Below are positions 5,263-17,841 of a stretch of 19,936 nucleotides of DNA, in pieces. Every line of letters begins with the position of its first letter. The first letter of the stretch is position 1. Position numbers and translations under genes: made by a program. The DNA is taken from the NCBI GenBank assembly GCA_037446635.1, contig JBBIIG010000069.1, positions 1-19,936 on the forward strand, written 5' to 3'. The notes beneath the pieces are model-generated. The model was not told the DNA's origin and made no database searches. It saw nothing but the letters and a program-made list of their open reading frames with translations. The DNA is from a bacterium (GTDB lineage: Bacteria > Zhuqueibacterota > Zhuqueibacteria > Oceanimicrobiales > Oceanimicrobiaceae).

Positions 5263-6285
5263 ATGTTTAGAAATTTTATCTGGGTTATCGCAGCGATTGT
5301 TTTTGTTTTTATCGGAGCGCAGGAAAGCTTCTCGCAGGGAAAATTCAGCGGCTATATGTTTGGCGATTTATATTACGTCGCCAGCAACCACGACGCGTCT
5401 ATTGAAGACCGAAATGGCTTCTGGTTTCGGAGAATTTATTTCACCTACGATCAGGGTCTAAGCGAGCAATTTGCGGTTCGTTTCCGCTTGGAGTTGGTCA
5501 GCGAAGGCGATTTTACTACCCGCGCGAACCTCGAGCCGTTTCTTAAAGACGGCTATCTGAAGTGGAGCCGTTCCGGCCATTCCGTGATTTTGGGGTTATC
5601 GCCTACTCCCACCTGGGAGTATTTTGAAGAATTCTGGGGATACCGTTCAGTGGAGAAGACGCCGGCGGATTTATATAAATTTGGTTCGTCGCGGGATTTT
5701 GGAGTCGCCGTGAAAGGCAGCCTCGGAAGCGCCAAGAACATCAAATACCATTTTATGTTTGGCAACGGTGGCGGCACCAACGGCGCCGACACCAACGAAG
5801 GCAAAAAACTGATGTTGGCCGTAGCCTATGAATTCTCCAAAAACTTTTTCGTGGAGGCCTATGGCGATTGGGAGGAACGTCCGGGGCCAACCAATCGCTA
5901 CACGGCGCAGGGCTCGGTGGGATACAAAAATGACAAGCTGCGAGTGGGCGGGCAGTTTTTGCGTCAGACCCGCGAGGGCGCGCTTGCCGATCTGAATCTG
6001 GAAGTCGCTTCTGGATTTATGGTAGTGCAGGCAAAGGAAAAACTCGCCGGATTTCTGCGCTACGACCGTTTGTTCGATCCTCTCCCGGACGGACCGTCCA
6101 TTGCCTACCTCCCATTTTCTAACGCGGCCAAGGCGAATTTCATCGTGGCCGGGCTGGATTACGAGCCGCAGCCGCAGGTGCATTTCATGCCAAACGTTGA
6201 ATTCGCTTTCTATGATGAAAGCGCTGGCGTCAACCCGGATACCGATGTCATCCCGCGGCTGACGTTTTATTATATCTGGAAGTAG
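5263..6285 (+). CDS. Outer-membrane beta-barrel, putative phosphate-selective (OprO/OprP-like) porin
   Basis: Signal peptide, alternating aromatic beta-strand pattern, GFWFRRIYF motif reminiscent of porin O/P FRRAR, aromatic C-terminal strand (LTFYYIWK), Pho box upstream, next to phoBR-pst. Confidence 0.65.
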   Translation: MFRNFIWVIAAIVFVFIGAQESFSQGKFSGYMFGDLYYVASNHDASIEDRNGFWFRRIYFTYDQGLSEQFAVRFRLELVSEGDFTTRANLEPFLKDGYLKWSRSGHSVILGLSPTPTWEYFEEFWGYRSVEKTPADLYKFGSSRDFGVAVKGSLGSAKNIKYHFMFGNGGGTNGADTNEGKKLMLAVAYEFSKNFFVEAYGDWEERPGPTNRYTAQGSVGYKNDKLRVGGQFLRQTREGALADLNLEVASGFMVVQAKEKLAGFLRYDRLFDPLPDGPSIAYLPFSNAAKANFIVAGLDYEPQPQVHFMPNVEFAFYDESAGVNPDTDVIPRLTFYYIWK

Positions 6286-6360
6286 GGGCGTATGGCTATA
6301 CGCCCTACACGGTATTGTAGGGGCGAATTCTCGTTGGGGCGTATCGCGATACGCCCCTAC
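6282..6360. repeat. Cluster of GTAG-type REP palindromes
   Basis: GTAGGGGCGTATGGCTATACGCCCTAC (6282-6308), half-copy GTAGGGGCGAATTC (6317-6330), GTTGGGGCGTATCGCGATACGCCCCTAC (6333-6360). Confidence 0.85.
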
Positions 6361-10254: not shown

Positions 10255-10341
10255 TGGAGTTGGAGTATTGGAGTGATGGATTAATGGATTAATGGTTTGT
10301 TTGTAACGCAAACATCCAGTACTCCATCACTCCATTTCTCC
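10255..10341. repeat. Inverted pair of octamer tandem arrays forming a long hairpin
   Basis: Left arm TGGAGTAT TGGAGTGA TGGATTAA TGGATTAA TGG. Right arm TCCAGTACTCCATCACTCCATTTCTCC, which is reverse-complement units. Inner hairpin TGTTTG-TAACG-CAAACA. Confidence 0.85.
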
Positions 10342-12699: not shown

Positions 12700-12783
12700 C
12701 TGTCATTCCCGCATGTTTTTGGCGGGAATCTTCTCCCGAGACGTCGGGACTGGATGCCCGATAAAGGCATTCGGGCATGACAG
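12700..12783. repeat. TGTC/CGTC-type REP doublet with nested mini-hairpin
   Basis: CTGTCATTCCCGC-ATGTTTTTG-GCGGGAATC ... GGATGCCCGA-TAAAGGCAT-TCGGGCATGACAG. Termini CTGTCAT/ATGACAG are inverted. The spacer holds TCCCGA-GACG-TCGGGA. Confidence 0.85.
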
Positions 12784-17414: not shown

Positions 17415-17831
17415 TCCAAAGTAGCCCAGGCGGCCGCGTCCCGATCCCTCGGGATGAGGAAAGTCCGAACTCCACAGGGCAGGGCGCTTCGTAACGCGAA
17501 GGGGCGGCGACGCCCGGAAAGTGCCACAGAAACACACAGCCGATGACTCCGATTCGTCGGAAAACAGGCGAAGGTGAAATGGCGAGGTAAGAGCTCACCG
17601 TTCCGGCAGCGATGCCGGAAGCCAGGTAAACCCCGCCCGGAGCAAGACCAAATATGTCCCGCTTCGAGAGCGGCCCGCTCGAGTTCCCGATTCGTCGGGA
17701 TAGCGGGACGGGTAGGTCGCTTGAGCCCGCTGGCGACAGCGAGCCCAGATAAATGGTCGCCTCCCCCGACTGTTCGGGCTTGCCCGACGCAGGCGGGGAA
17801 GACAGAATTCGGCTTATCGGGCTACTTTGGA
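17415..17831 (+). ncRNA. rnpB: RNase P RNA, bacterial class A
   Basis: GAGGAAAGTCCGAACTC, GGAAAGTGCCACAGAAA, GGTGAAA, GGTAAGAGC, GGTAAACCCCGCCCGGAGCAAG and ACAGAATTCGGCTTA conserved blocks. P1 TCCAAAGTAGCCC/GGGCTACTTTGGA followed by a T run. Confidence 0.97.
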
Positions 17832-17841
17832 TTTTTTTAAT

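Follow-up and report, generated by a model that had tools for sequence, protein, structure and literature searches.

The short palindromes in the RNase P RNA gene of this bacterium are best read, with a probability of roughly 65%, as members of a family of 16-19-base hairpins, TCCCGA-loop-TCGGGA, that stand in for other short hairpins and likely spread by overwriting them. The window, that is, the whole stretch of 19,936 nucleotides analyzed here, holds four members in the RNase P RNA gene rnpB and one in an intergenic repeat. They likely persist in the RNase P gene because only helix shape matters at the four outer positions.

The rnpB gene is a full-length match to RF00010 (270.9 bits against a gathering score of 100, E 8e-88, model positions 1-367), which places it in class A. 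The features of the window are as follows:
17418-17832, + strand: rnpB, bacterial RNase P RNA class A (Rfam RF00010, full model).
17439-17454, + strand: palindrome copy forming helix P3, loop TCCC (RF00010 alignment and fold).
17548-17561, + strand: degenerate copy at the P12 tip, loop TTCG (RF00010 alignment and fold).
17685-17700, + strand: exact copy with loop TTCG; it forms an extra helix within P16, 3' of P17 (fold).
17765-17778, + strand: copy in P19; in the predicted fold it now supplies the 5' strand of an elongated helix.
17779-17797, + strand: 19-nt P19 extension, absent from the same-genus relative G001 (comparison of P19 segments).
12702-12781, no strand assigned: CGTC-type REP dimer between two phosphate-transport genes (type as in the consulted part of PMC3733652).
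12734-12749, no strand assigned: palindrome copy in the spacer of that dimer, where sister dimers hold a 12-nt hairpin.

All five palindromes of the original prediction are present at these positions, and alignment to RF00010 puts the rnpB copies at P3, at the P12 tip, beside P16/P17 (17685-17700, placed there as an insertion) and in the P19 region. That each of the four forms a hairpin holds for three of them: in the lowest-energy fold the P3 copy (z -3.6), the P12 copy and the P16/17 copy are hairpins of their own, but the P19 copy serves as the 5' strand within an extended P19. P19 of G001 has the short form in which the motif itself is the hairpin, whereas the gene of the window has 19 further bases behind the motif. 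This extension also occurs in a near-identical piece from sequencing runs X1/X2.

The surroundings of the gene are also rearranged. The 3' ~105 bases of rnpB (window 17727-17832) are duplicated in the genome of the window (G000) on contig C37 (32029-32135, - strand), ahead of recJ. Of 31 relative loci, 30 have recJ after rnpB, unlike the window. Here rnpB is followed by a two-gene pair with a CopG antitoxin match, presumably BrnT/BrnA-like, and by the apparent rear half of a small gene, the front half of which precedes the C37 copy of the rnpB end. A cassette with the rnpB end and the gene pair, and then a crossover or an assembly mis-join in the repeat, would explain the arrangement.

The core pattern CCGA-N4-TCGG has five matches in the window; shuffling gave a mean of 0.49, and none of 200 shuffles reached five. 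Across the 4.64-Mb genome, the strict form TCCCGA-N4-TCGGGA is found 7 times against 0.21 expected, which ranks it 14th by enrichment among palindromes with six-base arms and four-base loops (p 2.6e-9), and CCCGA-N4-TCGGG is found 19 times against 2.66 expected. The expected genome-wide over-representation is thus seen for these two forms; the P12 form TCCGA-N4-TCGGA, taken alone, is not enriched (6 against 3.46). TCCCGA-N4-TCGGGA is a minor family in this genome, where GCCTGC-N4-GCAGGC has 83 copies. A family larger than that of the motif, GCCTGCCTGC..GCAGGCAGGC, with 83 strict copies, was seen inside REP arms as a true insertion of ~18 bases (C2:238644, C13:72394).

Long ORFs make up 83% of the genome, yet 10 of the 12 strict or C-flanked copies are found outside them. 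Most coding matches to relaxed patterns were set aside as apparent chance hits. One strict copy (C27:2864) apparently lies inside what is presumably a conserved enzyme motif; an 877-aa frame at C27:1796-4429 (- strand) has a start that by eye resembles a reverse transcriptase. Further copies cap terminator-like stems, and a cobalamin riboswitch helix holds a near copy. None of 15 other motif sites in the genome was matched in an Rfam search. Related non-coding units at C17:26610-26700 and C72:260-340, also without an Rfam match, consist of a promoter-like TTGACA-17-TATGTT and then a motif-capped stem. The proposal to look for the same insert in tmRNA and rRNA yielded none: tmRNA lacks it, and so do the initial 700 bases of the contig with a 23S fragment (16S rRNA is absent from the assembly). 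No SRP RNA was located.

Comparison of sister copies within one locus or genome shows that a whole hairpin is replaced, cut at the base of its stem and without target duplication. REP dimers: Five dimers like that of the window occur in its genome, of which one is filled with the palindrome, and two sisters with identical flanks carry the 12-nt hairpin. Swaps inside REP scaffolds are found in G000, G001, G009 and G050, and two REP subtypes in G001 have the same 7 bases replaced. Two other long intergenic inverted repeats are present in the window at 6282-6360 and 10262-10341.

tRNA copies: Partial tRNA copies give clearer evidence than the REPs. A set of 106 tRNA-copy loci was found by the motif adjoining the T-arm, the query setting their rough position and not their exact ends. 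An unfilled partner was assigned by script to 26 of the 106. The 17-nt anticodon stem-loop is exactly swapped at 13 of these 26 loci (13 of the 106), covering 8 anticodons; in all 13, both flanks are kept once and the target is removed, with no target-site duplication. A 10-nt swap in tRNA-Asn is seen at another 6 of the 26 and may be one inherited event.

Protein linker and other sites: Three hairpin types were distinguished with one mismatch allowed, namely A (the TCCCGA motif), B (TCCGCC..GGCGGA) and C (TCCGGC..GCCGGA), of which B and C were picked from rnpB sequences before their genome counts. In one linker of G000, a motif copy lies within a 9-codon in-frame gain relative to G009 and G014; a second gain there carries a type B hairpin, and G004 has a type C hairpin in the same linker. 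Orthologous empty sites were sought between G001 and G000 at 12 sites, of which 6 aligned. Only one of these alignments spans the motif, and at that site a half-matching hairpin is present in G000. Locus L479 (C41 of G000) has a ~55-base hairpin-rich insertion before its terminator that is absent from L242 of G001. None of the sequencing runs contained as much as half of the sequence words. In their contigs (X1 and X2 are apparently one data set), no filled/unfilled polymorphism was seen and no swap event was caught; the RNA matches in these runs are rnpB of other organisms.

The palindrome replaces hairpins more than it inserts. The idea that the hairpin enters existing stem-loops was right about the target, but the mode is mostly replacement and not insertion, as seen in the P3 length retained in 9 of 20 relatives and the exact anticodon-arm swaps.

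The candidate for an enzyme comes from the tRNA copies. A small GIY-YIG gene is present at 17 of 80 metagenome tRNA-copy loci, at 6 of 30 phylum loci (4 genomes) and at 0 of 80 rnpB loci; the last group serves as a control, though with shorter flanks and without tRNA DNA. A tree built from 48 rows and only 88 columns puts the 23 rows from beside filled tRNA copies (21 distinct) together in one 29-row clade (98/94). This clade is apart from the CGTC-REP-flanked clade, which is tentatively taken as Ssn. The nearest solved chain is 1zg2 (UPF0213, E 2.9e-5), and NCBIfam named none of 4 GIY-YIG proteins. Overall, the hairpin lies within 400 bp at only 3 of 33 small GIY-YIG loci, and the motif is not beside the small GIY-YIG gene of G000. 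The G000 member of the tRNA-linked clade follows a tRNA-Ser on C94, where a spare tRNA piece has a different hairpin. Partial tRNA-Ser copies at C94:106-400 and C90:12462-12540 carry a TCCGC..GCGGA double hairpin in the anticodon loop, and one of the pair stands behind a 78-aa GIY-YIG gene (C94:106-342).

The small tRNA-linked GIY-YIG nuclease is a putative enzyme of the hairpin swap, with somewhat less than an even chance of being the right one. Its predicted action, held just as tentatively, is that the ~80-residue protein would nick single-stranded DNA at hairpin bases and host repair would copy in the resident palindrome. The spare tRNA copies may be just safe targets made by the nuclease cassette. 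On the other hand, the same overwriting element could travel by another route, through a RAYT-type HUH enzyme in trans or through host template switching or repair without a dedicated enzyme. This is unlikely, even though no member of the clade was found in the hairpin-rich draft genomes G004, G040, G044, G050 and G056, several unrelated hairpin families show like behavior, and G000 has four Y1-family/RAYT-like genes (L051-L054). Moreover, HUH enzymes cut and rejoin hairpin single-stranded DNA, according to the main text of PMC11893778. However, the four Y1 genes are each bordered by a distinct repeat of their own and the motif is within 5 kb of none of them, on which the RAYT link was rejected for G000. 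Template switching alone would also leave unexplained why a single arm sequence is fixed in many phyla.

The overwriting reading is also consistent with rnpB across relatives, which was located in 56 of 61 related genomes and scored in all 56. The four helices are old, and their tips differ wholesale at similar length. The P3 site of relatives has other sequences of equal length, the same 18-nt length being kept in 9 of the 20 order-level relatives listed. At the P12 tip, the copy of G001 is nearer the consensus than that of the window. The extra P16/P17 helix is present in most of the family with other sequences and has the motif in G000, G001, G003 and G009. Within one genus, G050 and G053 differ by whole tips at P3, P12 and P18. 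Type A matches number two or more in 4 of the 56 genes, one in 14 and none in 38; the 4 genes fall on three separate branches in a tree of conserved rnpB columns, and their genomes hold 5-27 other motif copies. Among all 61 relatives, copies range from 0 to 27, with none in 29. The hairpin type in rnpB follows the same type genome-wide over the 56 genes (rho 0.40, 0.48 and 0.23; within-family permutation p 0.005, 0.008 and 0.033), and the six cross-type pairs all have p > 0.2. The rnpB tips probably arose by the same hairpin replacement, since their sequence type follows the hairpin type of the genome and switches within a genus. The predicted lineage-specific replacement is thereby supported as to tips that change and a motif in separate lineages, but the helices as such are ancestral, and so are the CCCG/CGGG stems in P3 and P19.

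Two further RNAs were considered and rejected. The cobalamin riboswitch did not serve as an independent replication of the concordance, although that of G000 has a near copy: over 38 genomes the test was not significant (rho 0.31, p 0.14) and is noisy, as shown by an off-diagonal pair with rho -0.06 and p 0.017. The tRNA-Sec arm is not a fresh target; in three families its motif is inherited whatever the copy number of the genome, being present in genomes with 0-1 other copies.

These observations bear on convergence, in which ancestral GC-rich stems and selection for stable hairpins would have produced the motif, and the four copies would not be mobile DNA. Few changes are needed at P3 and P19 to match the motif, since their CCCG/CGGG stems are ancestral across the class. 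The inherited tRNA-Sec arm, the non-significant riboswitch test and the 14 of 56 genes with one relaxed match, several of them without another strict copy in the genome, point the same way. However, convergence fails to predict the type-specific concordance of rnpB and genome, the base-exact anticodon-arm swaps and the whole-tip switches between G050 and G053, and 38 of 56 genes have no match at all. It is already weakened and is improbable.

The family is dispersed, patchy between genomes and present in many phyla. The motif forms P3 in GTDB species at no fewer than 120 of about 210 loci. The 80 titles listed are mostly Bacteroidota and also include Ignavibacteria, Patescibacteria, Marinimicrobia, Phycisphaerae, Acidobacteriota, Verrucomicrobiota, Nitrospirae and others; no proteobacterium, firmicute or actinobacterium is named among these 80. 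A further copy is present in 34 of the 80 full-length rnpB genes with the P3 motif. Thirty genomes were hand-picked for spread from these 80, and every one has the family, at 2-155 copies with a median of 15.5; the reversed pattern reaches 0-2. In the genus Flavobacterium (G167, L120), the family is in 78 of 81 genomes and the motif forms P3 in only 6 of 81; presence of the family in a genome is therefore a condition for an rnpB copy and not a guarantee. Two of the six carriers were pre-selected, and copy number in the remaining four is not clearly higher (p 0.12). A dispersed, lineage-patchy palindrome of ~16 nt in variable rnpB helices, as originally proposed, is thus supported, in separate lineages and aimed at existing stem-loops. 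That the palindrome is instead a selected binding or cutting site of a host protein, retained at every place that tolerates a hairpin, as with the NTS marks that SsnA cuts, is highly improbable. In its favor, the arms are fixed with a free loop, single-domain GIY-YIG genes are nearby and SsnA reads both sequence and hairpin (main text of PMC11893778), but copy number runs from 0 to 155 within one genus, motif copies destroy tRNA copies and strict copies in G000 are only 7.

In the overwriting reading, selection would filter the swaps, and the survivors would be those in variable helices or spare tRNA copies, at the tips of terminators, in REP loops and in linkers of proteins. The broadest form of the proposal is a selfish class of 16-base hairpins exchanged hairpin for hairpin by tRNA-linked GIY-YIG nucleases, with several competing families rewriting the variable helices of RNase P RNA, riboswitches and terminators in many bacterial phyla; it is rather doubtful. 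If true, this class of exchange would explain how variable helices change sequence wholesale at constant shape. For the rapid turnover of peripheral helices in structured RNAs, the finding offers a testable cause, namely mobile hairpin replacement and not paired point mutations, and analyses of covariation or phylogeny would be misled by swapped tips. Overwriting of a target by a 16-base unit, with no duplication, is unlike the described movement of REPs, MITEs and IS elements. The candidate nuclease family is uncharacterized. The genus with the palindrome family in 78 of its 81 genomes is cultured, so the proposal can be tested at the bench.

Several known systems offer precedent for parts of the finding, both as repeats inside rnpB and as possibly mobile repeats of ~20 bp. 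No description of such a hairpin-overwriting palindrome was found in the literature searched, which included few subscription papers and no supplements.

Repeats inside genes: The STRR repeats of cyanobacterial rnpB are reportedly tandem heptamer arrays that lengthen a helix, unlike the tip-swapping palindrome. Rickettsia palindromic elements are described as insertions and are about ten times longer than the palindrome, and cyanobacterial small dispersed repeats are likewise said to be insertions. Both resemble the palindrome in being very small or palindromic and in entering genes in frame and RNA genes. STRR, too, is a genome-wide short repeat inside rnpB (Vioque 1997). Extended RNase P helices in CPR bacteria are a further precedent, and the consulted part of that report does not mention palindromes (PMC8172020). 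As small dispersed repeats of ~20 bp, possibly mobile, are on record in the part consulted of PMC2884548, the phrase "far smaller than known" MITEs in the original prediction needs care. Unlike a MITE, the palindrome leaves no target-site duplication in the 13 exact swaps.

Ssn: SsnA is a single-domain GIY-YIG protein that cuts single-stranded DNA beside a specific hairpin (Chenal et al. 2025, PMC11893778); the main text contains no match to "tRNA" and shows cutting, not mobilization. Its gene stands beside NTS/SRM hairpins; here, a single-domain GIY-YIG gene lies near the palindrome at part of the tRNA-copy loci, but few of the small GIY-YIG loci overall have the palindrome close by. The REP that hosts the window's palindrome resembles the NTS consensus given there. 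The nucleases beside the palindrome form a tRNA-linked clade that is probably separate from that of Ssn (cd10448).

REP/REPIN with RAYT: Like these, as portrayed in the consulted parts of PMC3116915 and PMC3733652, the palindrome is short, palindromic, present in many copies, patchy between strains, non-coding and presumed to be mobilized in trans. Unlike them, it is a singlet of 16-19 nt without a GTAG/CGTC tag, with flanks that vary in all listed copies. REP/REPIN are inverted doublets and extragenic, whereas the palindrome occurs as a singlet, located in RNA genes, within other repeats and in one linker, and it replaces hairpins, including within REPs and RNA genes. None of the four Y1 genes of G000 is a cognate RAYT flanked by it. 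The palindrome thus works like a non-autonomous REP-type element, yet departs from the criteria of both REP/RAYT and MITEs, and is likely a hairpin-overwriting micro-element.
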